From: Solirubrobacteraceae bacterium | Lineage (GTDB): Bacteria; Actinomycetota; Thermoleophilia; Solirubrobacterales; Solirubrobacteraceae | DNA: 41,042 nt | Assembly (NCBI GenBank): GCA_050696935.1 | Contig: JBOGYU010000001.1 | Coordinates: 1 to 41,042 of the forward strand | Direction: 5' to 3' | Part shown: one piece after another, positions 5,046-31,684 of the stretch | Layout: each line of letters opens with the position of its first letter | Numbering within the stretch: the stretch's first letter is position 1 | Program-made: the position numbers and the translations under genes | Notes under the pieces: generated by a model | Told to the model about the DNA's origin: nothing | The model's input: only the letters and a program-made list of their open reading frames with translations | Databases searched by the model: none

Positions 5046-6271
5046 ACGGCGGCGCTCGTCGTTGTCGTGCCGGGCACCTGCAGTCTGCCGGTGACCGCGG
5101 CAGTGATGAGCGCCTGCCGGCGCTCGCGGAGGAGCGCGATCTGACGGTCGATGGCGGCGAGCGTCAGATCGATCGCCACTCGCGCCTCAAGCGCCTGATG
5201 CGCTATTAGTCGTTGCCGGCCGATCGCCGGAAGGGGAACACGCAACTCGCGCAGATCATCGCCGCGAAGCTTGACCATCGACTGGGACGAACCGCGCGCT
5301 GCCGCGGTCATCTGACTTCGTGCGTCCGGCGTCGACAAAGCGAGCTGAACGTAATCAGGATCGTGCCCCTCGCGAAGCGTCAAGCGGTAGATCAGATCTG
5401 GGAGCAGCAGTGTGGGTGCATCGGGGTCGAGTCGAGCCACGGCCGCCAGGCCCACCAGATTCGGAGTGTTCGCTCTCGTCACCAGGAGGTCGGCGTCGCG
5501 CACGGCAGGGCGGTTCGCGGCGCTTCCGTCTACGAGAAGCTTGTTCTCAATCGCCGAGAAGCCGCGGGCGCTGACCGCGCTCAGCTTGAGGACGCCAACC
5601 TCGCCATGACCCGCGGATCGATCCTCGCACTGCGGACTCGAGCCCTGCTCGATGGACGCCACCGCGCTCGCGAGTCGAACTTGAGCGCCAGCCGTCGCGA
5701 CCGCCACGGCCACCTGCGACCGATGCCGTTCGATCAGCAATACGCGCTGCCGCTCGCGGGCGGACATCATGGCGTCGATCCGCGTGGTCTCGGCGTCGAG
5801 GAGGTCTGCGATGCGTGCCTGGTCGGCTATGCCCGGACACGGGATACGAAAGGCGCGGAGCAAATCGGTGTCGAGACGCTTTGTTCCATGAGCTGCCTCA
5901 TCGGTGAGCGCGAGTATCGGGTCTTCGAACGCGAGCAGCGCATACAGCAAGTACTTCGATGAGACCCAGCGATCGGGTTCGATCGCCTTGATGTCCTGAT
6001 TGAACGCAACCGCCCGAGTGACCATCGCGACTGGCAAGCGCTTCGCCAGCGCCATCCCGCGCGTGCCAATCAGAATGCTCCCCGCCGGGACCGTCGTGGA
6101 GAACCGCTTCGCCGCGTCCTCTGTGATGGTGTCGGTCGAGCCGCTGAGCTCGGGCTTCTTTAGATCGCGCGTGCTGATCCAGGGAAAGCCGCCGCCCCAT
6201 AGGTCGTCTCGGTCCTTTGGCGGCGTTCCGCCTGATCGCCACTTACCAACATCCGCGAGGCGCGTGCTCAC
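5042..6271 (-). CDS. hsdS: type I restriction-modification specificity subunit (HsdS, two target-recognition domains)
   Basis: 409 aa lying between hsdM and hsdR with 4-nt overlaps on both sides. Bipartite layout with conserved helical spacers (..RERQRVLLIERHRSQV.. and ..IDRQIALLRERRQALITAAVTG). Confidence 0.85.
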   Translation of the reverse strand: MSTRLADVGKWRSGGTPPKDRDDLWGGGFPWISTRDLKKPELSGSTDTITEDAAKRFSTTVPAGSILIGTRGMALAKRLPVAMVTRAVAFNQDIKAIEPDRWVSSKYLLYALLAFEDPILALTDEAAHGTKRLDTDLLRAFRIPCPGIADQARIADLLDAETTRIDAMMSARERQRVLLIERHRSQVAVAVATAGAQVRLASAVASIEQGSSPQCEDRSAGHGEVGVLKLSAVSARGFSAIENKLLVDGSAANRPAVRDADLLVTRANTPNLVGLAAVARLDPDAPTLLLPDLIYRLTLREGHDPDYVQLALSTPDARSQMTAAARGSSQSMVKLRGDDLRELRVPLPAIGRQRLIAHQALEARVAIDLTLAAIDRQIALLRERRQALITAAVTGRLQVPGTTTTSAAV

Positions 6272-8196: not shown

Positions 8197-8318
8197 CAAC
8201 GCGAAGGAGTCGTGATCGATACGCGGGTTCCGACAGGCATCGCCCAAACAACGCTATAGCTCGCCCGCTACACCCGTCGCAACACGAGCGCGCCGCGTCG
8301 ATCCGAAGGACGGCCCGC

Positions 8319-9074
8319 TCAGGTCAACGCGAAGGAGGCCCGGTCGACTGCGACATCGGCGACGCGCGGCTCAGGCAGCTGGTCCCACTGGCGGCCATCG
8401 AGCTCGCGGCCGCGCGCCTTCGGTCGTGGGCCACCCCACTGCTTGAAGAAGAAGGCGACGTCATCGTCGACGCAGCGATCGCGGAGATCGCGGACCCACG
8501 CGGGGTCGATGCGGCGATGCCGCGGCCCGGACTCGCCGCCCGCTATCAGCCAGTCGATATTGGTGAGGTCCAGGCTCTCGAGTGGACCGAGCAGAGGCTC
8601 GGCACTGATGAAGCGGACGGCCGCCGGTACCTCGCGAACGGCATCGGCCCGGTGGACGAAGCGACGGTTCTCGATGCTGACGCCGATCCAGACATTGGGA
8701 GCCCAATCGAGCCATTCGGCGAGATCGGCGAGGCGGTCCTGGCGTTTGGTGAGGATCTGGAACGTGTGCCAGTGCGCCGCTCGCATCGTCGCAAACACGC
8801 TTTCGATGAAGTCCGTTGGGATCGCCTCGTGGAACAGGTCGGACATGGAGTTCACGAAGATCGTCTTCGGCTTGCGCCAACGCAGCGGAACGTCCAGACG
8901 CTCGTGCCAGAGCTTCAGGTCGAAGCCTTGCTCGTAGGGATGGCCGGCGACGCCGCGCCAGCGCTCGGCGAAGGTCTTGGCGTAGCAGTGAGCGCATCCG
9001 GGGCTGACCTGGGAGCAGCCCGTCACGGGGTTCCACGTGGCCTCGGTCCACTCGATCGCGCTTGTTTGTGCCAC
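8319..9074 (-). CDS. DUF5131 / phage Gp37-Gp68 family protein (three-Cys motif)
   Basis: IEWTEATWNPVTGCSQVSPGCAHCYA...IFVNSMSDLFHE...FQILTKR...RFISAEPLLGPL...DWLIAGGESGP...FFFKQWGG matches my recollection of the family consensus almost block for block. Confidence 0.85.
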   Translation of the reverse strand: MAQTSAIEWTEATWNPVTGCSQVSPGCAHCYAKTFAERWRGVAGHPYEQGFDLKLWHERLDVPLRWRKPKTIFVNSMSDLFHEAIPTDFIESVFATMRAAHWHTFQILTKRQDRLADLAEWLDWAPNVWIGVSIENRRFVHRADAVREVPAAVRFISAEPLLGPLESLDLTNIDWLIAGGESGPRHRRIDPAWVRDLRDRCVDDDVAFFFKQWGGPRPKARGRELDGRQWDQLPEPRVADVAVDRASFALT

Positions 9075-9132
9075 GGATGCCCTTTCGGCGCCGAAGATCT
9101 CAGCCCTGCTGCGTAATCGAACAAATGTTCGC

Positions 9133-10272
9133 CTAGGGCTCGGACGACTCGTCGAACCGCATTGTGATGCCCTTGCCCTCCTTGAACAGCCGGACGCCGG
9201 GCGGCCGTGTCACGACCAGGTCGCCCGTCTTCTCAGCGGGGGCAAGAGTCTTGGTCTTGAGATGGGTGTCGAGGAAGCGCGACCGCGCCGTGAGCTCCAT
9301 TGCGGCCTCGACCGTGAAGGGTTCGCCTCCGAAGCGCGCACGAAGCGCGTCCAGCAGCGGGCTAGTGTTGGGTTGTGCACCCTCCGGCTCGCCGAAGTCG
9401 AGGCGTTGCTGGCCCGCCGCGACTGGCTTTGGTGCCACGTACCCCTGGCCATTCACGGGGTCGACGCTCCAGAAGCCTTCCTTGATGCTCGACCAGCCCT
9501 TAGGGTGGCCGGAGCCTCCGACGATGAAGTAGGCGTTGCTCGGATCCGGCTTGAGGCGGAACGAGCCGACCCATTCCAGCGCGGCGTCCCGTAGCTGCTT
9601 CTCAAACAGCGAGAGCAGCTGCGAGGGTCGCTGAGGGCCGTCGAGCACGTCGCGCCAGGTGCTCGTGCCGAAGAAACGATCGAGCGCGGTCTCCTGGCCC
9701 GGTCGGTTCTTGAAGCGGTTGACGAACGAGAGCGGCAGGAAGATGAGCGTGTCGCTCTTGGGCTGCTGCACGAGGTCCTTGGTGAGCTCCATCGGCGCGT
9801 GTGAGTAGCCGAACGGGTCCAAGAACAAGAACAGAGCGGACGGCTCGGACACCGCCTGCGGCACGTGCTCCTCGTACCGCCCGCACGTGACCGTCCACTG
9901 CACGCGATCACTCCAGCCGGGCCCGCGGTCGCGCATCGCGTCCTCGAACTCTTGGAGCTTGGAGGCCAGGATGTCCGCCCGCGCCTCGTTCTTCTCGACG
10001 AAGTGCAGGTCATAGCGCACCGGCGACCACCGCTCGTGCAGGTTCGGGTTGGTGCACAGCGCGCGCATCAGGATCAGCGGCGATCCGGAGCCACCGCCGG
10101 CGTAGACGCCGGGACCCGCGAAGCCGTCGTAGATCCGCACGAGGCCGCCACCCGGGCGGCTCGCGAAGTACCCCGAGTGGATGCTGATCCACTTGTTGAA
10201 GAACGCGCGCAGCAGCTCGTGCTTCGCCTTCGTGTGTTCGTCACGCGTCCAGAGCACCGCTTCCTTCGCCAT
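9133..10272 (-). CDS. tcmP: three-Cys-motif partner protein TcmP-like
   Basis: 379 aa directly upstream of the DUF5131 gene and co-oriented with it. The N-terminus (W..DEHTKAKHELLRAFFNKW...YDGFAGPG) resembles the TcmP family, which is defined by pairing with Gp37/Gp68 proteins. Called from memory, not from a search. Confidence 0.65.
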   Translation of the reverse strand: MAKEAVLWTRDEHTKAKHELLRAFFNKWISIHSGYFASRPGGGLVRIYDGFAGPGVYAGGGSGSPLILMRALCTNPNLHERWSPVRYDLHFVEKNEARADILASKLQEFEDAMRDRGPGWSDRVQWTVTCGRYEEHVPQAVSEPSALFLFLDPFGYSHAPMELTKDLVQQPKSDTLIFLPLSFVNRFKNRPGQETALDRFFGTSTWRDVLDGPQRPSQLLSLFEKQLRDAALEWVGSFRLKPDPSNAYFIVGGSGHPKGWSSIKEGFWSVDPVNGQGYVAPKPVAAGQQRLDFGEPEGAQPNTSPLLDALRARFGGEPFTVEAAMELTARSRFLDTHLKTKTLAPAEKTGDLVVTRPPGVRLFKEGKGITMRFDESSEP

Positions 10273-15356: not shown

Positions 15357-15919
15357 CGCCTGACTGCCCAGCCGTCGTCGGTGCGCACGACCGTCGCGAG
15401 ATAGACCCGGTGCCGCGTCCCTTCCGAGTCGGCCCGACCGTGGGCAAGCCGCTCCTCCGAAGCTACGCACACGGCACCCCGCGTGACAGCACCGGGCTTG
15501 ACGTCGATCGCGACGACCCGCCCGCGCGTCCCGAGGCGGTCGCGACGCAGCGCCCGGTCCTGTGCGCGCAACTGGGCCTCCGCCGCAAGCTGACGAGCGA
15601 GCGCACCGGTCGCCAGGCTCGCGAGGCGCCGCTGTTGGCGCTCGATTGTGCGCCAGTTCCAGTTGCTCCACTGCGAGCAGAACGCGCCCAGGGCAGCGCG
15701 TGGCGTGCGCTGCGCGTCGCTATTCACTGCAGGCGCGGTGTCGCGCTCTCGCGCGAGTGGCGGACGCTCGTCACCGTACGCCCCCTCGTCGCGAGCCGCG
15801 GCGGCAGGCCGGCGCGTGTCGTCCCGGCGACGCTCGTCATCCTGCCTGTAGGGGTCCTGGCAGCCCGCGACGAACGCGACCAGCACCGGCACGACGATCA
15901 AGACGCGGCGCGTCATCAT
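15338..15919 (-). CDS. lipoprotein of the transfer operon
   Basis: ATGATG at 15919 overlaps the hydrolase stop. MMTRRVLIVVPVLVAFVAGC gives a signal peptide plus lipobox. The upstream part of ORF 15338..16651 is not coding. Confidence 0.7.
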   Translation of the reverse strand: MMTRRVLIVVPVLVAFVAGCQDPYRQDDERRRDDTRRPAAAARDEGAYGDERPPLARERDTAPAVNSDAQRTPRAALGAFCSQWSNWNWRTIERQQRRLASLATGALARQLAAEAQLRAQDRALRRDRLGTRGRVVAIDVKPGAVTRGAVCVASEERLAHGRADSEGTRHRVYLATVVRTDDGWAVRRWEPQP

Positions 15920-16968
15920 CCGCTTCGGCCGAGGTAGGGGCGCGGATCCACGGGACGACCCGAGATGCGCACCTCGAAGTGCAGGTGCGGCCCGAGGCAG
16001 TGGCCGGTGCAGCCTGCGAACCCGACGAGCGCGCCGCGCGGCACGATGCCGCCGGTCGGTGTCGGCCCCAGACGCGACTGATGCGCGTAACACGTCGAGT
16101 ACGGCGGCGCGTGCTCGAGACACGTCAACACGCCATAGCCCGACACCGGTCCGCGCGTCGTGACGCGGCCGGTCGCAGCGGCCAGGATCGGCGTACCGGG
16201 GGGAACGGCGATGTCGATGCCCGCGTGCAGCCGTCCCCAGCGCATGCCGAACGGCGAGACCACCGTTCCCCTGACCGGCCAGGCGAGCTCGCCCCCACCG
16301 CGGGCCGCGGGCAGGTTCCCGCCGCCGCCCGAGATCGATCCCGCGTCCGTCTGCCAGCCGCGGGCGCGGTCGAGGACCCGGCGAGCATACGCCTCGGCGA
16401 CGGGGCCGGCGCCGTTGTATGCGCGCACGGCGCTGAACGTCCGGGCGCCCAGCGTTCCGTCTGCGCCATTGGTTCGCAGCAGCGAGCCGGCGGCCATCCC
16501 GGCGTCGAAGTCGTCGTACACCGAGGGATGCGGCGCCTGCGGGTGCGGGTAGCGGGCCGGTCGGCGGCCGCGCCGAAACGCCCACCTGTGCCTGTCCCAC
16601 GTTGACGGCGGGCCGTTGGTCACGTTGAACTGGAACGGCCCCGCACAGCAACCGGCGAAGTTGAGGGCTCGGTAGGTCGTCGGATGCGTCGAGAACGCGC
16701 TCTCCTCCTGGTGCACGGACGCAAGCACGAGCCAGTCGAGGCCAAAAGCCGCAGCCGACTGGCGGTAGATCGGCACGAAGGCCGAAGGGATCCCGTCAGA
16801 AGCGCTGTCCGTCCCGGGCCCGCCGCTGGACGACAGCAGCGCCAGCGGCGCCACGATGAGCAGCAGCAGGAAGAGCAGCGCGAGCGCCGCGGCCATGACC
16901 GCGCGCGGCAGGAGCGACCGGGCGCCGAGCACGGCGCCGGCGGCCTGGAGCGCGGGCACGGCCATCAT
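15916..16968 (-). CDS. bifunctional cell-wall hydrolase: lytic-transglycosylase-like (SLT) domain plus M23 metallopeptidase domain
   Basis: ATGATG at 16968 overlaps the VirB4 stop. It has an N-terminal TM segment. LASVHQEESAF...GPFQF looks like an SLT domain. HAGIDIAVPPGTPI...GHCLGPHLHFEVR matches M23 HxxxD/HxH. Confidence 0.9.
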   Translation of the reverse strand: MMAVPALQAAGAVLGARSLLPRAVMAAALALLFLLLLIVAPLALLSSSGGPGTDSASDGIPSAFVPIYRQSAAAFGLDWLVLASVHQEESAFSTHPTTYRALNFAGCCAGPFQFNVTNGPPSTWDRHRWAFRRGRRPARYPHPQAPHPSVYDDFDAGMAAGSLLRTNGADGTLGARTFSAVRAYNGAGPVAEAYARRVLDRARGWQTDAGSISGGGGNLPAARGGGELAWPVRGTVVSPFGMRWGRLHAGIDIAVPPGTPILAAATGRVTTRGPVSGYGVLTCLEHAPPYSTCYAHQSRLGPTPTGGIVPRGALVGFAGCTGHCLGPHLHFEVRISGRPVDPRPYLGRSG

Positions 16969-19640
16969 CGGTGGGCCTCCCAGCCCTCGGCTGCGAGCTG
17001 CTCGAGCGCACGCCACGCGTCGCCGTCGCAGGTGTCGAGTACCTGCGTTCGTCGCGGAAGGTCGTTGACCGGGTCCGACGTCGCCAGGCCGTACTCGGTC
17101 GGGCCAACCCGCAGAGCGATCGTGCCTCGCCCGCGCGTGCCGTTGATCCAGTAGGCCTGCGAGTAGGAGCGCTTGACGGTCTTCAGCCGGGCGATCGCGC
17201 GCACCTCGGCGTCGGAGAGGCGCGCTGCGTCCTTGATGTAGGCGAGTTCGTCCGGCGACTGGCGCAGGAAGAGCTGCTGGGTCGAGTTGCGCAGCAACGC
17301 CTTGCCGTACGGGCCGGCGAAGTCGGATAGCTGCTGGGAGATGGCGACCAGGAACAGGCCCAGGTGGCGGGAGCGGCGCGCGATCTCGTTGACCCACTCG
17401 CCGGTCGCCCGGCGCTCGACGAGCTTCCACGCCTCGTCGATCACCAGCATCGAGCGGCCGGCGAAGACTCCGCCGTTCGCCTCGCGAAGCCGCTCGAGCC
17501 CGCGGGACTCGATGCGGCGGGTCACGTGCTCGGCCAGGACGAAGAGCACTGCGGCCTGGAGCTCGCGCGGCACCTTCCGGGTGTCGAAGGCGACCAGTGG
17601 CGCGTCGGCGGGGACGGTGGTCTCCCGGTCGAGGAGATACGCGTAGGAGCCGTCGTCGACGAACGAGGCGATCCGCTCGCCGAGCGTGCGCAGTGCCGAG
17701 GCGACCTCCTCGGCGCCGGCCTTAGCTTCGTCGTCGGCGCGGCGGCGGAGCTCTTGGCGCAGCAGTGCCTCGCGCGGGACGATCTCTTCCCGGGTCGCGC
17801 GCGCGTAGACGGACCGGATGGCGACTTCGAGCAGGTTGCGCTCGAGCGCGTCGAGGCCGTAGGAGTCGTCGCCGGCACGGTGGTCGCCGACGAGCAGCGC
17901 GTGCAGCGCGACGAGGTAGCTGATCTTCTCGATCGGCGGGTTCGCCGGGTCCTCGACGTCCCACGGATTGACGGCGTGGTCGTCGCTGGATGCCCCGATC
18001 AACAGGTGCTGTGCGCCTGGCACGAGACGGCAGAGGAACTCGTAGTGGCCGGCGCGATCGAGCACGAATGCCTGCATGCCGTGGGCGAGCAGGCGCGCGA
18101 CGAGGACGTTGACGAGGAACGTCTTGCCGCCGCCAGATCGCGCGTTGATCAGCAGCGTGCCGTTGTCGTGGGCGGGATCGAAGGGATTGATGAGGGCGAC
18201 TTCGCGTCCCGGGTCCGTGAACGCGAACGGGATCCCGAGCGGCGAGCCGCAGCCCGTGCCCACCAGCGGCACGGTGTCGCCGACATGACGGGTGACGTAC
18301 TTGCGCGTCATCCGGGCCAGGTCGCGTCCGAGCGGCAGCGAGGACTGCCACAGCTCGAGCTGGCGGAGCTGTCCAGTGTTCACGCGGGCGTCGGAGGCGG
18401 CGATGACCTCGCGGGTAGCCTGCTCGACCGCCTCGGCGAGCTGGACCGGATCGGGATTTGGGCCGCGCTCGCGAATCGACTGGTAGATCGAGACCTCGAA
18501 CGCCGACGCTCGCTCGTGACCGGAGAGTTCCTTCAGCAGCTCGGAGAACTCCTCCTCCTGGGCGAGCATCTCGTAGTCGGGAGTGCGGCCGCGCAGCTCG
18601 GCGCCACGGTTGACGCCGAACAACCGCCGGTGCCGAGCCTTGAATCGAGCGCGCTCACGCAAGCGGTCGAGCGCATGCACGTACACGGTGAGGGTGAACG
18701 GCCGCTGGACCTGCATCGCGTCGAGCAGCCACCCGAACTCGGTCGCGTCGGGCAGCGTCGCCACATAGAGGGCCTGCTCGAGGTCGCGGTCGACGCGCAG
18801 GTGGCGCTGGTCGGCGCAGTCGATCGCCGAGCCCGCAACGAGCTCCCGCAGCGCATGGGCGGCGCGCGCCGCCTCGCGCGCATCGGTCACCGCGTCGAGC
18901 TCGCCGACGAGCTCAAGCCGCTGCTCCTGCGCGGCGGGGCGGCGATTGGGAGTTCGATCCGCCGCCGTCGGGTTGAATCGTCGCCAGAGGAGGTCGAGCA
19001 CTTCGGGGCCCGACAGCATGTGGGTGGAGAGGTCCAGCGCCTCGAGGTCACCGCGGATGGAGTCGGTCACGTGGAGTGACTCCTGCGCCAGCCGCCGGTG
19101 CGACTCAAGCGACCGCTCCAGCGCGCCTGCGGAAAGCCGAGGGCGGCGGACGCGAACGAGTTCGCGCCAATCGATCCGCACGCGCCGATCTGGGACGTGC
19201 GGAACGATGACGTAGTAGGCGATGTCGACGGCCGCCTGGGCCTGGGAGTGCCGATCGAGCGACTCGCACAACGCCGCGTGAAGCCGCCGCAGCGCCTGCG
19301 CACGCGCGCCCGCTCCATCACGGAGGGCCCGTTGGGCGCGCTCGGCCTCCGCCCGGCTGTGCTCCAGCAGCGTGGGCAGACGGACCGGGGCCGCCTCGAC
19401 ATAGAACTGCAGCGATTGCCCAGCTCCGAGCCGCCCGACCAGCTGGCCGAGGGCGTGGCCGACCTGCTCCCGCTCGGCTTGGGACATCACGAGCGGGTTC
19501 TTCGGGGTCACGCGCAGATACCGAACGAAGGCGCCCTCGCGCGTGATGAGGAGACCTTCGCGATCGAGGGCCTCGACCGCGCACAGCTCGCCGGCGTCCG
19601 GTAGCGCGACGCTGCGCTCCCGAAGTCTCAGACGTCCCAC
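16965..19640 (-). CDS. VirB4/TrbE/TraC-type conjugative ATPase
   Basis: GTG at 19640 overlaps the upstream stop (GTGGGACGTCTGA). 891 aa with Walker A (ARSGGGKTFLV) and Walker B (MLVIDEAWKL). The 149-aa N-terminal extension in ORF 16965..20087 is Arg/Gly junk that overlaps the upstream gene. Confidence 0.9.
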   Translation of the reverse strand: MGRLRLRERSVALPDAGELCAVEALDREGLLITREGAFVRYLRVTPKNPLVMSQAEREQVGHALGQLVGRLGAGQSLQFYVEAAPVRLPTLLEHSRAEAERAQRALRDGAGARAQALRRLHAALCESLDRHSQAQAAVDIAYYVIVPHVPDRRVRIDWRELVRVRRPRLSAGALERSLESHRRLAQESLHVTDSIRGDLEALDLSTHMLSGPEVLDLLWRRFNPTAADRTPNRRPAAQEQRLELVGELDAVTDAREAARAAHALRELVAGSAIDCADQRHLRVDRDLEQALYVATLPDATEFGWLLDAMQVQRPFTLTVYVHALDRLRERARFKARHRRLFGVNRGAELRGRTPDYEMLAQEEEFSELLKELSGHERASAFEVSIYQSIRERGPNPDPVQLAEAVEQATREVIAASDARVNTGQLRQLELWQSSLPLGRDLARMTRKYVTRHVGDTVPLVGTGCGSPLGIPFAFTDPGREVALINPFDPAHDNGTLLINARSGGGKTFLVNVLVARLLAHGMQAFVLDRAGHYEFLCRLVPGAQHLLIGASSDDHAVNPWDVEDPANPPIEKISYLVALHALLVGDHRAGDDSYGLDALERNLLEVAIRSVYARATREEIVPREALLRQELRRRADDEAKAGAEEVASALRTLGERIASFVDDGSYAYLLDRETTVPADAPLVAFDTRKVPRELQAAVLFVLAEHVTRRIESRGLERLREANGGVFAGRSMLVIDEAWKLVERRATGEWVNEIARRSRHLGLFLVAISQQLSDFAGPYGKALLRNSTQQLFLRQSPDELAYIKDAARLSDAEVRAIARLKTVKRSYSQAYWINGTRGRGTIALRVGPTEYGLATSDPVNDLPRRTQVLDTCDGDAWRALEQLAAEGWEAHR

Positions 19641-22182: not shown

Positions 22183-22577
22183 CGTCTACCCGTTGAGGAG
22201 GGAGCTAGGGGGAAACTGGCCCCGCGACTGTCGTCGGACAGGCCGCGCTCGGATCAGCTGCTCTCCGCCGCGCGACGCAAGCTCAACGCCGGCGACCTCG
22301 CCGTGTGACCATCAGCTGGAAGCAGCGACTGCCGACGTTTCCGCGTCCAGGCCGAGCGGAGTGTCCGCGCGACTGCCGGTCCCCGCCAAGCGCTGGAGGG
22401 GCCGCCACACGACGGCGGCGCCAGAGCCGCCCGCTGCCTTTCGCGCAACGCAGCAGTGACGGGACGACAACCTCTCATCCATCACTCGTCCGGCGCCGAC
22501 CGCGGCTTCGGACGTGGGGCGGTCAACGTCCGGGGTCGCGCCGGTACGGTGGGGCAGTGAACCTTCCGTCTCAATCG

Positions 22578-23522
22578 ATGGCGGCCAACACGATCTCACG
22601 GCTACGGCGGGTACCGCTTCGGGAGGTGTGGCAGCACGAGGCTCGTGGCTTCACCACCTGGCTGGAGCGGAACACGGACGTCCTAAGTGAGACGCTCGGC
22701 CTCGTCATCGATAACGTCGAACGCGAGCGCTCGGCTGGCAACTTCAGCGTGGATCTGGTGGGCGAGGACGCGGCCGGGAACCAAGTCGTGATCGAGAACC
22801 AACTCGAGCGCAGCGATCACGATCACCTGGGCAAGCTGATCACGTACCTGGCTGCATTCACGGCTAGGACGGCGATCTGGATCGTGGCGGACCCGCGCCC
22901 TGAGCATGTCGGCGCGATCACGTGGCTCAACGAGTCCGTCGAGGCGGACTTCTACTTGGTCAAGGTCGAGGCTGTCCGGATCGACCAGTCTCCAGCGGCG
23001 CCGCTCCTGACGCTGATCACCGGGCCGAGCGCCGCCGCCACGGAGGTGCGTGCACAGAAGCAGGAGCGTGCAGAACGCCACGACTTGCGTCAGGCGTTCT
23101 GGACCGGCCTGCTTGCCCGTGCTCGACCCTCGACGGGGCTCCACTCTGCCGTGTCCGCGAGCACCAGCACCTGGCTCGTCGCAAGTGCAGGGCAGCGGGG
23201 CCTCCTCCTGTGCTACATCGCGCGACAGCACGACGCGGCTGTGGCACTGGTGATCGATCGGGGCGACGCCGCTGAGAACGCCGCGCTCTTTGAGCGGATC
23301 CGACACGACCAAGAAGCCATCGAGAATGAGTTCGGCGGTCGACTCGACTGGGACCCCGCGGAAGGAAAGCAGCGTTGTCAGGTCGGCGCGAGGGTCTCCG
23401 CCGGTGGGTACCGCGACCCAGAGGAGAACTGGCCGGTCATCCAGGACAAGCTCATCGACACCATGGTGCGCTTTGAGCGCGTCCTCCGACCCCGGATCCA
23501 CGCACTCACGCTCGCGGACTGA
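22578..23522 (+). CDS. DUF4268-type protein with N-terminal PD-(D/E)XK nuclease-like fold
   Basis: ATG at 22578 (MAANTISRL). LREVWQHEARGFTTWLERN...FSVDLVGEDAAGNQVVIENQLERSDHDHLGKLITYLA...WLNE is the family signature as I recall it. The upstream 91 codons of ORF 22305..23522 are not coding. Confidence 0.75.
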   Translation: MAANTISRLRRVPLREVWQHEARGFTTWLERNTDVLSETLGLVIDNVERERSAGNFSVDLVGEDAAGNQVVIENQLERSDHDHLGKLITYLAAFTARTAIWIVADPRPEHVGAITWLNESVEADFYLVKVEAVRIDQSPAAPLLTLITGPSAAATEVRAQKQERAERHDLRQAFWTGLLARARPSTGLHSAVSASTSTWLVASAGQRGLLLCYIARQHDAAVALVIDRGDAAENAALFERIRHDQEAIENEFGGRLDWDPAEGKQRCQVGARVSAGGYRDPEENWPVIQDKLIDTMVRFERVLRPRIHALTLAD

Positions 23523-23965: not shown

Positions 23966-25063
23966 ATGCGGCTCTGTACCGCCTGCCTTCACATCGACGA
24001 CCGGACCATCGAGCACTGTCCTCGCTGCGGGGAGAGCGCGTTCGCGAGAGTGACCAAGAACGGGGACGTCGTCAGCGTTCCTGGCGAGGCAGGCATGCCC
24101 TGCCAGTGCTGTCTGGAGACGGAGCAGCAATTGCAGCTCCGCTACTACCGCCGAGTCCTGGGACTGCTGATCATGGACCGGGTCTGGGGCGAGGCTGGGT
24201 ACTTCTGCGGCCCGTGTCGTCGCAGGCACTTCGCCAAGAACATGGCCTTCACCCTCGTGTTCGGTTGGTGGGGCGTGATCGCGATGGTGTTCCGCAATCC
24301 CTACGCCATCTTGGTAAATCTCTGGGCGCTGTTCCGGCCGCCCTTTGGCGCCGGCGAGTTCGGCGCCATGAATGCAGACGAGATTCGGCAGGCGGCCGCC
24401 AGAGAGCAACAGCGCGAGCAGCGCCTGGCAGACGTCTATATGCGCATGCCAGGCTGGATGGAGACGCTGACCGAGGACGACATTACGCGAGTCCTCGCGA
24501 ACGTCGACTACTACGCGACGCTGGACGTCTCCCGCTCGGCGTCGCATCGCGAGATCAAGGCGGCTTGGCGTGCGCAGGTGAAAGCGCATCACCCTGATCG
24601 CGTCGGTGCGACAGGACACGAGCGAATCGTTGCGATCAACGACGCTTGGCAAGTTCTCGGGGACGAGCGCCTCCGCCATGCCTATGACCACCGCGAGGAG
24701 CTGCTTGGGTTCCTTCACGAGACGGAGGCCGTCGCATCGGAGTTCGACGAGCAGGACGCCGATGAGGACATGGCGATGGTCGTCGGGTGCGTCGAGTGCC
24801 GGCTTGCCTTTGAGTCCTTCGACGATGCCGCCGACCACGTCGATGCCGTGCACCCGCACGTCGACTACCACGACATCCTGGTTTCCCTCCTAGACGACGA
24901 GGACGCCGAGCCAGAGCGCGATCGCGCGTCGAACTCGCCGCGGTGGCGCTGCAAGGCGTGCCCACGGACCTTCAGTGACTATGACCTGGCCGTTCAACAT
25001 GCCGACCATGCGCATCCGGAACGAGTCACGGTCGATCCGAGAGCCGCGGTGGAGGCAATATGA
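23966..25063 (+). CDS. membrane protein with N-terminal zinc ribbon, central J-domain (HPD) and two C-terminal C2H2-type zinc fingers
   Basis: The zinc ribbon is CTAC..CPRC. The hydrophobic GWWG segment is FTLVFGWWGVIAMVF. The J-domain is DYYATLDVSRSASHREIKAAWRAQVKAHHPDR...INDAWQVLGDERLRHAYD. The two C2H2 fingers are CVEC..HVDAVH and CKAC..HADHAH. Confidence 0.85.
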   Translation: MRLCTACLHIDDRTIEHCPRCGESAFARVTKNGDVVSVPGEAGMPCQCCLETEQQLQLRYYRRVLGLLIMDRVWGEAGYFCGPCRRRHFAKNMAFTLVFGWWGVIAMVFRNPYAILVNLWALFRPPFGAGEFGAMNADEIRQAAAREQQREQRLADVYMRMPGWMETLTEDDITRVLANVDYYATLDVSRSASHREIKAAWRAQVKAHHPDRVGATGHERIVAINDAWQVLGDERLRHAYDHREELLGFLHETEAVASEFDEQDADEDMAMVVGCVECRLAFESFDDAADHVDAVHPHVDYHDILVSLLDDEDAEPERDRASNSPRWRCKACPRTFSDYDLAVQHADHAHPERVTVDPRAAVEAI

Positions 25064-25716
25064 GCCGATTCTGCTCTCATTGTGGTGAGCAGGTACGCGG
25101 CGATGATCGCTTCTGCGTTAAGTGCGGTGAGGAGATAAACGCCGGCGCCCAGCCGAATGACGTGAACCCTGGGTTTCGTGCGCCGGACCATCTGCACCGT
25201 CGCGCCGGCGGCTTCCTCGTTCGGCACGCGCGCGGACTCATGGCTCTCGCCGTCGTTGCTGCCATAGCGGTAGTGGCGGCTCTTTCCGGCTCGTCGAACG
25301 AGACAACTCCCGGTCCTGCCGACTCGGCGCCAGCGTCCGAGGTCGCCGCTGAGAAGGACCGCCAGCAGACAGGGCGGACGAAGGATGGCGCGGCGACGAC
25401 GACGTCCGAGGATCCTGCCGCTGACCGTGTCATCAAGGCCAAGGGTGCAGACGGCAAGACATACCGTTGCGACATAGGGATCATCGACCGCGTCAATGCG
25501 GCCAACGACCGTGTGGACCGACGAGAAGAGGTGTTGAAGGCTCGGCGTGCGGCGGTGCGAAGGCTCGAGAAGCAGTACCCCAACGGCGAAGCGCCCGGCG
25601 ATGTGGTCGACCGCTACGAGGATCTCCTCGCCCGCGCCAACGCCCAGGTCACATGGACAAACAAGGCAATCGACCAGTACAACCGGGTACTGCGCGACGC
25701 CTGCGACCCGGCGTAG
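25060..25716 (+). CDS. zinc-ribbon, single-pass membrane protein
   Basis: ATGA overlap with the upstream gene. FCSHCGEQVRGDDRFCVKCGEEI is a zinc ribbon. A TM helix (LMALAVVAAIAVVAAL) is followed by a charged helical ectodomain. Confidence 0.7.
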   Translation: MSRFCSHCGEQVRGDDRFCVKCGEEINAGAQPNDVNPGFRAPDHLHRRAGGFLVRHARGLMALAVVAAIAVVAALSGSSNETTPGPADSAPASEVAAEKDRQQTGRTKDGAATTTSEDPAADRVIKAKGADGKTYRCDIGIIDRVNAANDRVDRREEVLKARRAAVRRLEKQYPNGEAPGDVVDRYEDLLARANAQVTWTNKAIDQYNRVLRDACDPA

Positions 25717-25719
25717 CAC

Positions 25720-25944
25720 GTGCGGACCTCCGCTCTCTACGGCGCCGTCATGGCGCTCGCTGCCATCGCCGCCGTTGTGCTCGTCGGCGTTAGCGTTCAT
25801 GAGTTCGACTACGCCGCCGACCATCCCTACCGATACGGGCCCGCCAAGGTGATCGCCTGGACCGCTGGAGCCGGCGCCCTTCTCGCTATCGCGGTCGGCC
25901 TACTCGCCGGAGCGCTACTCCGCCAGGGCCACTCCTCGAGCTGA
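25720..25944 (+). CDS. small two-TM membrane protein
   Basis: GTG start 4 nt after the upstream stop. 74 aa with two hydrophobic helices. Confidence 0.5.
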   Translation: MRTSALYGAVMALAAIAAVVLVGVSVHEFDYAADHPYRYGPAKVIAWTAGAGALLAIAVGLLAGALLRQGHSSS

Positions 25945-26144: not shown

Positions 26145-28865
26145 GTGGTTCCCGAGTCCCACAACGCTTCACTTGAGCGGGACGAGCTGATTGCTCGGAC
26201 GCTGCGGCCTGCGCGCAACGTCGTGCCGGTGCTCGGCGCCGGGATCAGCGAGGGAGCCGAGCTTCCGGGTGCGTTGCTGCTCGGCCAACACCTCCTCAAG
26301 GTCGGCGAGTTCGTCGACCGGAGGCGGCCGTCCGCCACCGCACTGTTCGACATCGTCGACGCCTTGGTGCCGGCGTGGCGGAGCGCCTGCTTGGGGGAGG
26401 CGGTCGCCAAGTTCGTCGCAGTCGAGCCCCCGACGACCAACCCGATGGCGCAGGCGCTCATCGATGTGCCGTCGCAGTTCATCGTCACCCTCAACTACGA
26501 CCTGCTGGTCGAACGGACGGCCGTGGCGGCCGGGCGGCCCGACCCCAGGGTGCTGGTCAACGTCCCGGCCGACCTTCGGGAAGCACACCGGTTGCTCGTT
26601 CGTGGCCCTTGGCCGCCGGACCGGCTGACCGTCCTTCACCTTCATGGCGTCGTGACAGCGCCGGAGACGATCGTTTTAGACAGCGACTCCTACCAGGACC
26701 TCGTCCGAAATCCTGACGTCCAGGCAGTGCTCAGCGAATTGGCGCTGCACCGTACGATGCTGTTCTACGGCACTACTCTCAACGAGACGTACCTTCTGGC
26801 AACGCTCCAGGCGCAGATCAATCGGGCTGAACACGTCCTGGTCTGCCGATCTGGGCAAGAAGGGGAGTTGACCGGCGGCCGGCTGTCGATTTCGTTCGCG
26901 CGCCACAGCATCCGGATCGCGACCGTCCCGACCTTCGATGACCTGCCCGGGCATCTCGCCCAGCTGAATCTGACTCGGGATCAGCCTGCGACCGGCGGCG
27001 CACGGACGGCCGGCTCGCTACCACCCGCCGGCCCATACATCGCGAACGAGTTCAGCGACCGACGCAGGCCGGTCAGCGACGAGGAGCGGATCTTCGCACT
27101 ACTCGGAGACGACGAATACGACAACCCCGCTGAGATCACCGAGGCGAACGTGGCAGCCGGGCATCGAACGCTGGTGCTCGGAGGAGTGGGGACCGGGAAG
27201 TCCGAACTGCTCGCCCATCTTGCTCGAACCAGCCGGCCCGACCGGCCAGGAGTGCTGATTCGTCTCGGCGATCAGAAGTTCACCGGAGGAAGGCCCGAAC
27301 GGGTGCTCGGCCGCTGGGCGCAAACGGGATGGAGCGCGAGCGGCGATGTCACCGTCACCGCCGACGCCATCGAAGGCGGGTCGATGCACTTCCTGCTCGA
27401 CGGCCTTGACGAAGTGCCGTCAGCCGAGCAACAAGCCGCTGCGAATCTGGTCGTCGACCTCGCTAACCGACTGCCGCAGCATGCGTTCACCGTTACATCC
27501 CGGCCGGTCGCCGCCGCCTCCACGCTAATCGACGCCACCATCGAAGGGCGCCCTGGCTGGGAAGTGCTACAGCTTGAGCCGAGCTCGGCTTGGCAGTCCC
27601 GGTACCTGACGCATCGCGGCGTCTCGTTCGAGGACTTGATGACCGCCCTGCCCGAGCTTGGGGATATGCCCGAGGTCCTCACTACCCCGTTCTTCCTCTC
27701 CCGGGTGGTCGACCTCTACTCAGAGGGCCGGCTCACGGGTCTGAAGGATCTCGGAGAGTTGCTCGCCGCGCTGATCGACACGCTGCTCCAACGTGAGGAG
27801 CCGTTGCTCACCCTCGATCCTGCGGAAGTCCGAGCCTGGCTCCACAGCGTCGCGCTTGCGGGGCTACTGGCAGGTCGTCGATCCTTGCTGGCGTACGAGC
27901 TCGACCGGTTTCCGCTGCCCGACGGCGCCGCCGGCAGCCCGCGGGAACTGGCGGAGATGCTCGTCCAGCGTCTGCTACTGGCCGAGCACGCTGGGGTGTA
28001 CCGATTCGCTCACAGGATTCTTGGCGAGCAACTGGCAGCCGAGGCGCTTGGCGACCGCGAACCCACCGCGGCACTGATGGACTGCCTCGTCCCTCGGCGC
28101 AGCGACGCGATCGCCGCGGTGCGCGAGGACGCGCTGGTCACGGTCACGCTCGTCTGCCTTCGCGCGGCCGATTGGCGACGGGCCGTCGCCGAACGCGACC
28201 CCCTGGCCGTTGCCGCAGCGACCCCGAACGACGCGAGCCCGCAGGAGCGCCGCCAGGCTGCCGAGCTGCTCTGGGGCGTCTACACCGAACGTGCGATCTG
28301 GATGAGGCAGCGGGGCACGTCTGCGCTGCTGGACCACGCGTCAGCCCTTGGTCGTCTGATCGACAAGGATCCCGAGTCGGAGATCGCCCGTCGGGTCCGG
28401 GCCGCAATCCACCCTGGTGAACGTGAGCAGCAGGGAAACGCAATCAACGCCTGGGTGCGAAGCCGCCCGAAGGGGTTCGTCGAGGACCTCCGAAAGGTGC
28501 TCGCCGACCATGGCCGCGACGGCGTGGTGCATCGCCAGGCCGCATCCGCCGCGTTAGACGGCGGCTACACCGAGCTCCTCGACGAACTTGTACAACTCGT
28601 CGAGACCACGCCCGATAGCGCGGTGCAGCAGGGCGCCGGGCTCGCCCTCGTGCAGCTACTCCCGGCGGAGCGGCGCCTCGATCTGGGGTTGCGGCTCATG
28701 CGCACGCAGGAAGCCGACCTGGTATTGACCCGTCTGGTCGCTGAACTGAGCCCGCGCGAGCTGATCCTGATGGCGGCGGCCTACGAAGGCGAAGACCCGT
28801 CTTGGGATAGACGGCTAAAGAGAAAGCTCGCCGAGGCGATCGCGAAGGTGGCCGAGGATGCCTGA
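26145..28865 (+). CDS. SIR2-like (SIR2_2) NADase domain fused to a NACHT/STAND NTPase and a helical-repeat C-terminus
   Basis: SIR2 blocks are NVVPVLGAGIS, FIVTLNYDLLVE and LTVLHLHGVV..IVLDSDSY, with the catalytic N and H present. Walker A (GGVGTGKS) is at 27180-27203. The NACHT-type Walker B (FLLDGLDEV) is at 27390-27416. About 400 aa of helical repeats follow. Confidence 0.85.
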   Translation: MVPESHNASLERDELIARTLRPARNVVPVLGAGISEGAELPGALLLGQHLLKVGEFVDRRRPSATALFDIVDALVPAWRSACLGEAVAKFVAVEPPTTNPMAQALIDVPSQFIVTLNYDLLVERTAVAAGRPDPRVLVNVPADLREAHRLLVRGPWPPDRLTVLHLHGVVTAPETIVLDSDSYQDLVRNPDVQAVLSELALHRTMLFYGTTLNETYLLATLQAQINRAEHVLVCRSGQEGELTGGRLSISFARHSIRIATVPTFDDLPGHLAQLNLTRDQPATGGARTAGSLPPAGPYIANEFSDRRRPVSDEERIFALLGDDEYDNPAEITEANVAAGHRTLVLGGVGTGKSELLAHLARTSRPDRPGVLIRLGDQKFTGGRPERVLGRWAQTGWSASGDVTVTADAIEGGSMHFLLDGLDEVPSAEQQAAANLVVDLANRLPQHAFTVTSRPVAAASTLIDATIEGRPGWEVLQLEPSSAWQSRYLTHRGVSFEDLMTALPELGDMPEVLTTPFFLSRVVDLYSEGRLTGLKDLGELLAALIDTLLQREEPLLTLDPAEVRAWLHSVALAGLLAGRRSLLAYELDRFPLPDGAAGSPRELAEMLVQRLLLAEHAGVYRFAHRILGEQLAAEALGDREPTAALMDCLVPRRSDAIAAVREDALVTVTLVCLRAADWRRAVAERDPLAVAAATPNDASPQERRQAAELLWGVYTERAIWMRQRGTSALLDHASALGRLIDKDPESEIARRVRAAIHPGEREQQGNAINAWVRSRPKGFVEDLRKVLADHGRDGVVHRQAASAALDGGYTELLDELVQLVETTPDSAVQQGAGLALVQLLPAERRLDLGLRLMRTQEADLVLTRLVAELSPRELILMAAAYEGEDPSWDRRLKRKLAEAIAKVAEDA

Positions 28866-30252
28866 TCCAGAGCTGATCGCGGCGGCGTGCAAGGCCACGA
28901 TCCTTTGGCGGCTCGACGTCCGAGCGGCCGCGCGGCTCAGTCGTCACGATCCTCCTGCTGCTGTGCGCGGCATCGCCGAGGCGATGCAGCAGGGAGCCGA
29001 GTGGTGGCACGTCATCGCGCTCACTTCCCACCTGACCCCAGAGGATCTCCGAAACGGGGGGCTCGACGAGGAGGTCATCCGACGAGTCGAAGCCACTCAA
29101 GCCGCCGCCTGCGCTCGCGAAAAACAAGATCCCGATGCCTTCGCCGACGCGGAGGATGAGCCGCCTCTCGAGCTCGCGCCGCCTCCGAACCTGACCGAGC
29201 TGGTGATGGGTACGCCTGAGGACACCGACGGGCCGCTGCTGCGCGGCCACCGGACCCTGTCCGGGCACGTCAACGACCTCGACGCGCAGCACCGCGCACG
29301 GCTCACGGCGCGGATCGCTGCCTGGTGGCCGGAGAAACCGTACGTCGAGACGATCACGTGGATCGATCATGGCACCTGGCGTCAGGAGTACGGGTCGGCG
29401 GCCTGGTTGGCGTACGCCTCGGCGCTCGGCCTGACAGTGACCTCCGAGCAATGGGCGCAGGTTGCGTCCTGCGGGGTCCTGTTCGACCCTCAGCGTCTTT
29501 GGCTGCGCGAGCGGTCCACCGTGGACGGACAGCTACGTGCCGCCGAGTTGCTCGCCGGCGTCGCGAACCCGGCGCGGTGGCTGGGTCTCTTCGACTGTTG
29601 CAAGGATCCGCTCGCCGAGCCAATCATGCAAGCCGCGTCCGACGCGCTCCGCGCCCATCCGTCTGTGCCGAGGTCAATCACGGAAAGCGAAGACCTCCGC
29701 GCGCGCGAAAAGGTCATCGGACGGCTCGTGGCCAACGGCCGCGCCGACCTGGCGCTGCGGCTGGCAGAGCAGCGCCCCGACCTCGAAGCCTCCTTTGATC
29801 GCAAGCTCGCAGAGCACGGTGACGCCGACGCGCAGGTCCGCCTTGCGAGCGGTCTCGTCGCCCGGGCGGCGGATGGCGAATCGCTCGTCCACGAGGATTT
29901 CGGGTGGATGGATGCCGTGGCGGACGAGCGGCTCCTGGGACCGTTGTTCGAGCTACTCGGACTGGTGTGGAGAACCAGCGACAAGCCGGTTCCCCGGGTC
30001 TCGTCCGGCAGCGGCCTGCATGACGTGACTAACCCGGTGATGGCGGCAATCAAGACCGTGGGCGGCCGAGCCGCTATCGATGGTTACGACGAGCTCCTCG
30101 CCCGCGGCGGTGACATGCGCTGGCTACGCCATCAGCGCGAAGAGATAGCGGCGTCCGCGCTTCGCATGGACGGCCTCGAGGCAGCGGAGGCTGCCGCGGC
30201 CGAAGCCAACATCCCTGTCCTGCCCGTCGTGGCGGAGAACGATCCGGTGTGA
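28858..30252 (+). CDS. hypothetical 464-aa alpha-helical protein, translationally coupled partner of the SIR2-NACHT gene
   Basis: Its ATG overlaps the upstream stop by 8 nt (ATGCCTGA). Codon usage is gene-like across the whole ORF. I recognise no motif. Confidence 0.7.
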   Translation: MPDPELIAAACKATILWRLDVRAAARLSRHDPPAAVRGIAEAMQQGAEWWHVIALTSHLTPEDLRNGGLDEEVIRRVEATQAAACAREKQDPDAFADAEDEPPLELAPPPNLTELVMGTPEDTDGPLLRGHRTLSGHVNDLDAQHRARLTARIAAWWPEKPYVETITWIDHGTWRQEYGSAAWLAYASALGLTVTSEQWAQVASCGVLFDPQRLWLRERSTVDGQLRAAELLAGVANPARWLGLFDCCKDPLAEPIMQAASDALRAHPSVPRSITESEDLRAREKVIGRLVANGRADLALRLAEQRPDLEASFDRKLAEHGDADAQVRLASGLVARAADGESLVHEDFGWMDAVADERLLGPLFELLGLVWRTSDKPVPRVSSGSGLHDVTNPVMAAIKTVGGRAAIDGYDELLARGGDMRWLRHQREEIAASALRMDGLEAAEAAAAEANIPVLPVVAENDPV

Positions 30253-30417
30253 CTCGGCTGGCGTCGACCCGCTCGATGAGGGCTGCCGCACTGGCTGCTG
30301 CGTCTCGCGCAAAGCGACAGTCGCGCTATAGCCCACCGGACCGCTCCCTGGAGTTGACCCGGTTTCGTGGACACCTGAGCGCTTGGGCCGCTGGGCCCGG
30401 GCAGGAAGGATGTGTTC

Positions 30418-30714
30418 ATGCCATCGAGTCGTCCCCCGTATTCGTCGGAGTTCCGGCGCCAGGCCGTCGAGCTGGTGCGCTCGAGCGGGTCGTCGATCCC
30501 GCAGATCGCCGACGAGCTCGGCGTCTCGCCGCAGTCGCTTAGGAACTGGGTCAAGCAGACCGGGTTGGACCGCGGTGAGCGCCGCGACGGGCTGACCAGC
30601 GACGAGCGCGAGGAGCTGCGCCGGCTGCGGCGCGAGAACCGCCGCCTGACCCAGGAGCGCGAGATCCTCAAGGCGGCCGCGGCTTTCTTCGCCAGGGAGA
30701 CCGATCACCGGTGA
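30418..30714 (+). CDS. IS3-family transposase OrfA (HTH)
   Basis: PPYSSEFRRQAVELV...IPQIADELGVSPQSLRNWVKQ...ELRRLRRENRRLTQEREILKAAAAFFA is the classic IS3 OrfA HTH plus leucine zipper. ATG at 30418 with AGGAAGGA upstream. Confidence 0.9.
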   Translation: MPSSRPPYSSEFRRQAVELVRSSGSSIPQIADELGVSPQSLRNWVKQTGLDRGERRDGLTSDEREELRRLRRENRRLTQEREILKAAAAFFARETDHR

Positions 30715-31646
30715 TGATGTGCTTCCGGCTGATCGACGCGAAGCGAGCACAGCATCCCGTCTCCCTGCTGTGCGAGGTGCTCGGCGTCAGCCGCGCCGGC
30801 TACTACGCCTGGAAGCAGCGGCCGGCGTGCGCGCAGCGGCGACGCGATGACGAGCTGCTGGGTGAGATCCGGGCCATCCATGACGAGAGCAAGGGCACCT
30901 ACGGCTGGCCGCGGATCCACGCCGAGCTGCGCCACCGCGGCACGCGCATCTCGCGCAAGCGTGTCGCCAGGCTGATGCGCCAGGGCGGGCTGTCGGGCAT
31001 GGTTCGGCGGCGCAAGGGCCGCACAACGGTCTCGGTCCCGGGCATCGCCACCGCGCCGGACCTCGTGCGTCGCGACTTCGCGCCGAGCGCGCCGAACCGG
31101 CTGTGGGTCGCCGACCTGACCGAGATCGCCACCTGGGAGGGCAAGCTCTACCTCGCCGTCGTCGTGGACTGCTTCTCGCGCCGCTGCGTCGGCTGGGCGA
31201 TGGCCGAGCACATGCGCGCCGAACTCGTCGTCGAAGCGCTCGAGATGGCGCTCTGGCACCGCCGCCCCGACGTCGGACTCGTTCACCACAGCGACAGGGG
31301 CGGCCAATACGTGTCGCTGATCTTCGGCCAGACCGCGCGCGCCGCCGGCATCGACATCTCGATGGGCGCCAAAGGCTGCGCGCTCGACAACGCCGTCTGC
31401 GAGGCGTTCTTCGCCACGCTCAAGAAGGAACTCACCCGCCGGCGCTCCTGGCCCACCCGCCGAGAGCTCCAGAGCGCCGTGTTCGCGTGGATCGAAGGCT
31501 GGTACAACCGCCGCCGGCTGCACTCCACGCTCGGCTACCTCTCGCCGCTCGACTACGAGAACAGAACTCTCATGACCGGCGGTGCCAGTCTCGCCGCTTC
31601 GCGGCTCGCGCCCACATCAGGGATGATCAAGGAGAAGGCTGCGTAG
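30711..31646 (+). CDS. IS3-family transposase OrfB (DDE/rve integrase core)
   Basis: HPVSLLCEVLGVSRAGYYAW...GTYGWPRIHAELR...NRLWVADLTEI...VVDCFSRRCVGW...VHHSDRGGQYVS...DNAVCEAFFATLKKE...YNRRRLHSTLGYLSP. Confidence 0.92.
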   Translation: MMMCFRLIDAKRAQHPVSLLCEVLGVSRAGYYAWKQRPACAQRRRDDELLGEIRAIHDESKGTYGWPRIHAELRHRGTRISRKRVARLMRQGGLSGMVRRRKGRTTVSVPGIATAPDLVRRDFAPSAPNRLWVADLTEIATWEGKLYLAVVVDCFSRRCVGWAMAEHMRAELVVEALEMALWHRRPDVGLVHHSDRGGQYVSLIFGQTARAAGIDISMGAKGCALDNAVCEAFFATLKKELTRRRSWPTRRELQSAVFAWIEGWYNRRRLHSTLGYLSPLDYENRTLMTGGASLAASRLAPTSGMIKEKAA

Positions 31647-31684
31647 ACCAGCCCCAACGTGTCCACCGGAACGGGTCAAGTCCA

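Follow-up and report, generated by a model that had tools for sequence, protein, structure and literature searches.

Apparent fission of a single-chain SIR2-NACHT protein into two translationally coupled genes in a Solirubrobacteraceae bacterium

The window analysed here is the whole 41,042-nucleotide (nt) stretch at the start of contig JBOGYU010000001.1 (assembly GCA_050696935.1) from a Solirubrobacteraceae bacterium. It carries two overlapping genes, here called A and B. Gene A (26145..28865, + strand; GTG start, 906 amino acids, aa) encodes a SIR2 effector, a NACHT NTPase and a proximal helical region, and judging from the alignments it is the counterpart of the N-terminal two thirds of a family of single-chain proteins. 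Gene B (28858..30252, + strand; ATG start, 464 aa) encodes the C-terminal domain of this family, all-alpha and detached from the rest. It is fairly probable (about 0.7) that A and B together represent one anti-phage protein of the STAND class (signal transduction ATPases with numerous domains), similar to the nucleotide-binding leucine-rich repeat (NLR) receptors, that was split when the frame shifted by one nucleotide in a loop between domains, with B being the distal helical C-terminal domain of ~450 residues. Both open reading frames (ORFs) and their 8-nt overlap are as given in a preliminary description made from the sequence, which had taken B for a separate partner (a second sensor, an immunity factor or an adaptor) and the pair for a new two-component architecture. 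Neither of these two proposals held: the whole of B has its homologue in the last ~450 residues of single-chain relatives, and the pair is the split form of the established single-gene SIR2-STAND design, the ratio of fused to stand-alone B among full-coverage matches being 56:9.

Gene B and its fused relatives

Most homologues of A are single chains of about 1,270-1,440 aa (~1,350 residues in round figures), and 31 of the 40 others measure 1,268-1,424 aa, which is about the sum of 906 and 464. In pairwise comparison, residues 6-457 of B aligned with residues 902-1347 of the fused protein P0006 at 46% identity (E 2e-105), and approximately full-length alignments were also obtained with the C-termini of the fused proteins P0007 (39% identity) and P0013 (33%). 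The terminus of A falls in the same column of the multiple alignment as the ends of the split proteins P0012 and P0038, a column at which the fused P0006, P0007 and P0013 run on; here the window reads ...AKVAEDA* / MPDPELIAAACK... and P0006 reads ...SQLDHNSAAGLIAAACQ.... Since B is what the fused proteins carry as their C-terminal domain, A and B amount to a gene fission, and the alignments identify the source as a one-gene SIR2-NACHT family present mainly in Solirubrobacterales and other Actinomycetota.

An exhaustive search of 1.84 billion representative proteins with a hidden Markov model (HMM) profile of B retrieved 180 relatives. Among the 65 that cover the full profile, 56 are fused, being long SIR2-NACHT proteins with the B domain at residues ~900-1370, and nine are stand-alone proteins of ~430-465 aa. 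Throughout these representatives B-like sequence occurs only as such a C-terminal domain, as a stand-alone ORF or as a fragment, and it was not found with any other gene family in the profile search or at the genome loci. A scan of species-representative genomes with patterns derived from A gave 18 loci, nearly all in metagenome-assembled genomes of Solirubrobacterales or other Actinomycetota, 12 of them with a single intact ORF of ~1,360-1,440 codons. Scanning of genome contigs with patterns derived from B gave no match. Alignment A2 was too divergent for pattern design, and a plasmid database yielded no DNA or protein match.

The expectation that homologues of B always adjoin STAND genes was borne out. 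At all eight other loci with a stand-alone B (L001-L005 and L027-L029), B lies directly downstream of a SIR2-NACHT gene; these comprise the frameshifted L001 and six clean splits, since L002 and L003 represent one lineage on two contigs. Such constant adjacency is predicted by fission.

Some search results were misleading at first sight. A word-indexed search returned only three proteins, namely B and two relatives, each of the latter encoded directly downstream of a SIR2_2 gene; the orphan status that this suggested for B was an artefact of search sensitivity, corrected by the pairwise and HMM searches. Clusters of ~340-aa matches to the B profile were considered as a second fission site and rejected, the one case checked (P0061, locus L030) being a fragment that ends a 1.5-kb contig. 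In protein P0048 (1,273 aa), the B profile matched near the N-terminus (residues 182-642), followed by a P-loop, GPWGSGKT, and then by a long Arg/Pro/Ala-rich stretch. This stretch resembles an out-of-frame translation, and the protein probably arose in gene calling, by read-through into an adjacent gene for a KAP-like NTPase.

The A/B junction of the window (GAGGATGCCTGATCC; in longer context ...GAAGGTGGCCGAGGATGCCTGATCC...) occupies positions 28844..28865 (+ strand). It consists of a Shine-Dalgarno (SD)-like GAAGGTGG at 28844-28851, a 6-nt spacer, the ATG of B at 28858-28860 and the TGA of A at 28863-28865, so that the two genes share the 8 nt ATGCCTGA. Given an SD-like motif 6 nt upstream of an ATG that overlaps the stop codon of A, B is predicted to be translated by coupling to A, and in this respect the preliminary description was right. 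Scanning for promoters and terminators gave nothing relevant, and no terminator was found between A and B. Both ORFs have the coding signature typical of a high-GC genome, with a GC content of 0.79 at third codon positions (GC3) and ~0.5 at second positions (GC2); such a third-position bias is expected of real genes in DNA of ~68% GC.

Clean splits were identified at seven loci, namely the window, the L002/L003 lineage, L004, L005, L027, L028 and L029. All seven are broken at the identical alignment column, between domains, with start and stop overlapping by 8 or 11 nt and with B in the +1 frame relative to A (7/7). The B genes begin with ATG or GTG, preceded at 5-9 nt by an SD-like GAGGAGG, AAGGAGG or GAAGGTGG; at the equivalent position of fused loci an SD-like motif was present in only 3 of 12.

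The distribution of the splits was examined in a neighbour-joining (NJ) tree of full-length sequences with 100 bootstraps. The window grouped with L001 and the fused P0006 and P0007 (100%), L005 with L003 (100%), and L029 with the fused P0056 (99%), L004 joining the latter pair at 93%; L028 was placed elsewhere. Monophyly of the split forms was recovered in 0 of 100 bootstraps, and the split loci occupy at least four separate places, interleaved with fused genes, which means that the fused or split state has changed at least four times. In split sister lineages the B proteins share 43-46% identity and are still intact, and divergence of this extent without decay speaks for a stand-alone arrangement that is viable and is being maintained.

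Both halves of the window pair are intact and show the same conservation as the fused proteins. Where fused proteins show conservation of 80% or more, A keeps 94% of the positions and B 88%, the corresponding means for fused proteins being 92% and 89%. Synonymous sites are saturated at 34-65% amino-acid identity.

A 12-nt junction, (GAGG or ACGG)ATGCCTGA, is common to the window (28854-28865), L002 (707-718) and L003 (1319-1330). It encodes D-A-stop and M-P-D/E-P-E, and the L002/L003 lineage belongs to a different clade of the tree; the identity of these junctions is probably due to convergence. Insertion of a single G into GAT-CCT-GA(N), which encodes Asp-Pro-Asp/Glu, would create the ATG and the TGA together.

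Domain content of A and B

The N-terminal part of A is a SIR2_2-type domain (~residues 20-276; 26202..26972, + strand), in which residues 112-228 matched Pfam SIR2_2 (PF13289) at E 5.6e-13 and 49.6 bits, well above the gathering cut-off of 24.5. The motif TLNYD (26487-26501) carries a catalytic-type Asn117 and the motif HLHG (26637-26648) carries His165 and His167. Residues D119, H165, H167 and G168 are invariant in an alignment of 37 homologues (A4), and N117 is invariant in an alignment of seven sequences (A3). The conserved active-site Asn and His of SIR2 enzymes are present in A, where by analogy they may have a catalytic role.

A NACHT-type STAND NTPase module follows at ~residues 330-640 (27132..28064, + strand), delimited from motifs, Pfam and fold. 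Its Walker A motif, GGVGTGKS (residues 346-353; 27180-27203), fits GxxxxGK[ST], and its Walker B motif, FLLDGLDEV (27390-27416), contains D419-G-L-D422-E423 and fits D[GAS]hDE, both at exactly the positions first noted. Residues G349, G351 and K352 of the former and D419, D422 and E423 of the latter are invariant in the 37 homologues. The D[GAS]hDE signature of Walker B defines the NACHT clade (Kibby et al., bioRxiv 10.1101/2022.07.19.500537). Of the two domains named in the preliminary description, SIR2_2 was thus confirmed by its Pfam profile and NACHT (PF05729) was not, with E 1.6e-5 and 25.2 bits, slightly below the 26.7-bit cut-off, over profile positions 80-137 only; PF05729 is nonetheless listed for A and several homologues in a precomputed table. 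The assignment of A to the NACHT clade is supported by motifs and fold, the Pfam score being marginally sub-threshold.

The AlphaFold (AF2) model of A, built on a 37-sequence alignment, had a predicted local distance difference test score (pLDDT) of 87.6 and a predicted template modelling score (pTM) of 0.80. From residue 661 it is all-helical, and Pfam gave a weak HEAT_2 match at residues 781-863; this HEAT-like region (~residues 660-906; 28122..28862, + strand), which agrees with the helical region expected after NACHT, ends at the fission point. Foldseek searches with the model of A gave, for the N-terminal domain, ThsA (8btp, E 1.6e-8) and DSR2 (8ykf, 2.1e-8), and also 8wyb, KomBC (9v0g, TM-target 0.61) and human FAM118B (9r0p). 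The central module matched the NACHT of NLRP3 (9hg4, E 2e-7), NLRC4 (4kxf, 4e-7), NLRP7 and NLRP9, and it resembles solved NLR NACHT modules in the fold of the nucleotide-binding and oligomerization domain (NOD), taken as a whole (nucleotide-binding domain with helical and winged-helix extension). A sequence search of the Protein Data Bank (PDB) with A matched the SIR2 part only (FAM118B and 9v0g). Pfam, the D-G-L-D-E Walker B motif and the fold matches of the model agree that the first gene encodes an intact-looking SIR2_2-NACHT STAND protein, as had been described.

No known domain had been recognised in B, and none was found in Pfam, PADLOC or NCBIfam, the NCBIfam search returning nothing meaningful. 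Its AF2 model is all-alpha, with 26 helices and a pLDDT of 69.7, and a fold search with this model gave only generic alpha-solenoids (PPR, TPR, ARM and HEAT; best E 3.8e-3, TM ~0.2). The possibility that B is more of the repeat that forms the helical tail of A was ruled out by profile-profile comparison (probability 0.5%). B is a helical domain in its own right, to which no solved structure is specifically related, and its role in the family is presumed to be that of a sensor or regulatory domain.

A close known parallel in architecture is provided by the bNACHT proteins, which follow the same tripartite logic of an N-terminal effector (SIR2 among those listed), a central NACHT and a C-terminal helical or repeat sensor, and which carry the same D[GAS]hDE signature (Kibby et al., bioRxiv 10.1101/2022.07.19.500537); the fold of A resembles the NACHT of NLRP3 and NLRC4. 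In contrast to bNACHTs, the distal C-terminal domain is here a separate, coupled ORF without a Pfam model, although 56 of 65 full-coverage relatives are made as one chain. It was reported that bNACHTs occur only rarely in operons, and that those operons are poorly conserved (Kibby et al., bioRxiv 10.1101/2022.07.19.500537).

The best structural matches of the SIR2 domain of A belong to DSR2 and ThsA (8btp, 8ykf and 8wyb). DSR2 likewise joins SIR2 to a long helical sensor, which the titles of the PDB entries matched describe as solved in complex with a phage tail tube protein. Protein A differs from both in having a NACHT/STAND NTPase. DSR2 and ThsA are single polypeptides that lack this module, and ThsA is activated by a small-molecule signal.

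Avs5, or AVAST type V, is reportedly a single-gene SIR2-STAND defence. A and B resemble it in the combination of a SIR2 effector with a STAND NTPase and a helical C-terminal region, and abortive infection by NAD+ depletion is presumed for both. PADLOC-DB 2.0.0 includes a model for Avs5. In PADLOC, A and its fused relatives gave only weak SIR2-domain matches (LmuA, ThsA and Dsr1), Avs models being absent among the matches of A (E up to 1) and of the fused P0006 and P0013 (E up to 0.01), and B gave no match at all. The Avs5-like character raised in the preliminary description found no support there; A and B belong to a different sequence family, in two genes, and their membership in Avs5 is unsupported. 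PADLOC-DB 2.0.0 has no model for this SIR2-NACHT family.

Prokaryotic genes undergo fission and fusion at domain boundaries, where a one-nucleotide change in an inter-domain loop yields two overlapping, coupled ORFs; such changes are reversible and recur across lineages. The present case differs from this general pattern in that an NLR-like immune receptor is concerned, with the NOD/effector unit parted from the distal C-terminal domain. To our knowledge, which here comes from a limited literature search and makes this a weak claim, such splits of SIR2-NACHT proteins are not documented.

Readings of the split and a proposed mechanism

The arrangement might also be explained as a broken gene, in which a recent insertion of one base inactivated a single-chain SIR2-NACHT protein, or as an assembly error, with B unmade or a useless fragment. 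The frame change indeed amounts to one nucleotide, and deleting one base gives a plausible fused sequence; long ORFs can persist by chance in DNA of 68% GC, obvious frameshifts are seen in the nearest relative, L001, and at several other loci, and an IS3 element 97 nt downstream indicates a region in flux. However, B gains a proper ATG through the break, preceded at 6 nt by an SD-like motif, and the overlap is a compact 8 nt; the same design recurs at the same alignment column in six other lineages, and the SD is absent from most fused genes. Both halves have kept the conserved residues at the rate of intact fused proteins, split sister lineages show no decay even at 43-46% identity, and the identical ATGCCTGA junction occurs in an unrelated lineage, from two sequencing runs. 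A broken gene is thus considered rather unlikely. Recruitment of B as an independent partner to an already complete single-gene SIR2-STAND protein, be it as a second sensor, an immunity or antitoxin factor or an adaptor, would agree with the lack of a Pfam, PADLOC or NCBIfam domain or a specific structural relative for B, with its translational coupling to A and with the profile comparison, by which B is not a further copy of the helical tail of A. This is very unlikely: the full-length homology of B to the C-terminal domain of fused members (56 proteins) refutes an independent origin, A lacks ~450 residues compared with its fused relatives and stops precisely at the column from which they run on, and no B-like sequence was found with other gene families in the searches made.

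Programmed +1 ribosomal frameshifting at GCC-UGA, with an SD-like GAGGA upstream as in prfB, would produce a fused protein besides the two separate products. It would account for the identity of GGATGCCTGA in the window and the distant L002/L003 lineage, for the +1 frame of B at 7/7 split loci and for the SD-like element ahead of the stop codon. But a P-site tRNA-Ala on GCC would be unable to re-pair with CCU, the remaining five junctions differ in sequence, and the start codon of every junction stands at the canonical distance from its SD, so that ordinary coupling suffices; with ~4 independent events, one common frame is statistically unremarkable. Frameshifting of this kind is improbable in the extreme.

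Fission of one NLR-like protein into two coupled genes is the reading preferred here. It draws on the domain identities, the homology of B, the conserved break point, the coupling signals, the recurrence of the split, the intact halves and the location in a defence island. Several observations weigh against it. The non-fused loci L001, L006/L009, L007, L008, L016, L021 and L025 are frameshifted, with otherwise continuous coding and without start signals, and several of them come from long-read-style assemblies. Loci L006/L009, L007, L008, L016, L021 and L025 are broken by several frameshifts each and are probably pseudogenes or long-read indel errors, whereas L001 may be a pseudogene, an assembly error or an independent split. 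The window split is a singleton in its own clade, where the closest relative, L001 (65% identity in A and 55% in B), is broken differently. At L001 (6060-6192) the frameshift lies right after a conserved 'SWD', ~20 codons upstream of the break in the window, with a 50-nt overlap and no SD or ATG. Because the split is a singleton and L001 has a different frameshift, persistence of the window junction under selection is not demonstrable. Removal of one base from GATGCCTGA gives the in-frame ...AEDPDPELIAAACK..., and GATGCC minus one base gives ...AEDPDPELIAA...; the junction may be a recent mutation or an assembly indel. The phylogeny is of the NJ and not the maximum-likelihood type, and the binding of A to B is something we infer by analogy. 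Finally, no PADLOC model and no characterised member exist for the family, whose putative role in defence is deduced from the domains and the neighbouring genes.

The split SIR2-NACHT protein is likely a SIR2 NADase sensor of abortive infection with its helical C-terminal domain acting in trans. The mechanism proposed is modelled on Avs and bNACHT STAND proteins and on SIR2 effectors, ThsA and DSR2 among them. B would dock non-covalently on the helical tail of A, rebuilding a sensor/autoinhibitory module, and this module would recognise a phage-derived trigger. The NACHT domain would then bind ATP and oligomerise, the clustered SIR2 domains would hydrolyse NAD+, and the infected cell would no longer support phage replication. 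A 1:1 coupling through the A/B overlap fits a stoichiometric complex. By the same analogy, a phage-derived trigger, NADase activity, association of the two halves in trans and a phenotype of defence might all be expected of the pair.

For the study of such systems, these results remove a false lead, namely a new partner protein and a new two-component SIR2-STAND architecture. In its place stands a SIR2-NACHT family, mainly of Solirubrobacterales and absent from PADLOC, that has repeatedly been cut at one inter-domain loop into two coupled genes. Repeated splitting at the same loop implies that the C-terminal helical domain of ~450 residues can function as a separate polypeptide. Natural pairs of split and fused orthologues (the window pair and P0006; L029 and P0056) would offer a direct test of whether regulation of the NOD and the effector by an NLR-like sensor domain requires a covalent link. 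Perhaps, with somewhat less than an even chance, the split is no accident and selection maintains it as a working design. The pair would then be a natural 'split NLR', its distal helical domain acting in trans on a SIR2-NACHT core, and fused and split forms would interconvert by single-base changes at one hot-spot loop. Lineages could in that case retune stoichiometry, autoinhibition or the exchange of the sensor domain, and the pairs would provide a ready-made tool for dissecting how the C-terminal part of STAND proteins controls NOD activation.

Genomic neighbourhood

The preliminary description had placed the pair in the defence-rich cargo of a conjugative element, beside an insertion sequence, and the annotation agrees, with conjugation genes, a type I restriction-modification (R-M) operon, two PADLOC candidate systems and an IS3 element. 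The conjugation genes lie on the - strand and encode a relaxase, a T4 coupling protein, a VirB4/TraG-like ATPase, TrbL and an M23 peptidase (15916-17430, -). A protein with a single-stranded DNA-binding (SSB) domain (611-1360, -) is encoded among them, and both it and the M23 peptidase would be expected in an integrative conjugative element of an actinobacterium.

The type I R-M operon hsdRSM occupies positions 2058-8247. It is adjoined by a two-gene PDC-M30/M41 module (8319-10272, -), composed of a DUF5131 protein (8319-9074, -) that matched PDC-M41B and PDC-M30B at E ~1e-107 and of a 379-aa protein (9133-10272, -) that matched PDC-M30A at E 9e-30. The other candidate, a DUF4268 protein of 405 aa (22305-23522, +; PDC-S11, E 3e-121), is located ~2.6 kb upstream of the SIR2-NACHT pair.

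Directly upstream of A, three small co-directional genes (23966-25944, +) encode a 365-aa DnaJ J-domain protein with Cys-rich ends, a 218-aa zinc-ribbon protein and a 74-aa hydrophobic ORF; the ATG of the zinc-ribbon gene overlaps the stop of the preceding gene by 4 nt (ATGA). Because neighbouring genes vary among the related loci examined, this trio is probably a module separate from A and B.

Downstream, the IS3-family element spans positions 30349-31684, with orfA at 30412-30714, orfB at 30711-31646 and imperfect terminal inverted repeats of 35 nt at 30349-30383 and 31650-31684. Its left end lies 97 nt past the stop codon of B, so B is not truncated by the insertion. The element separates the defence cargo from a block containing an ABC transporter and a two-component regulator.

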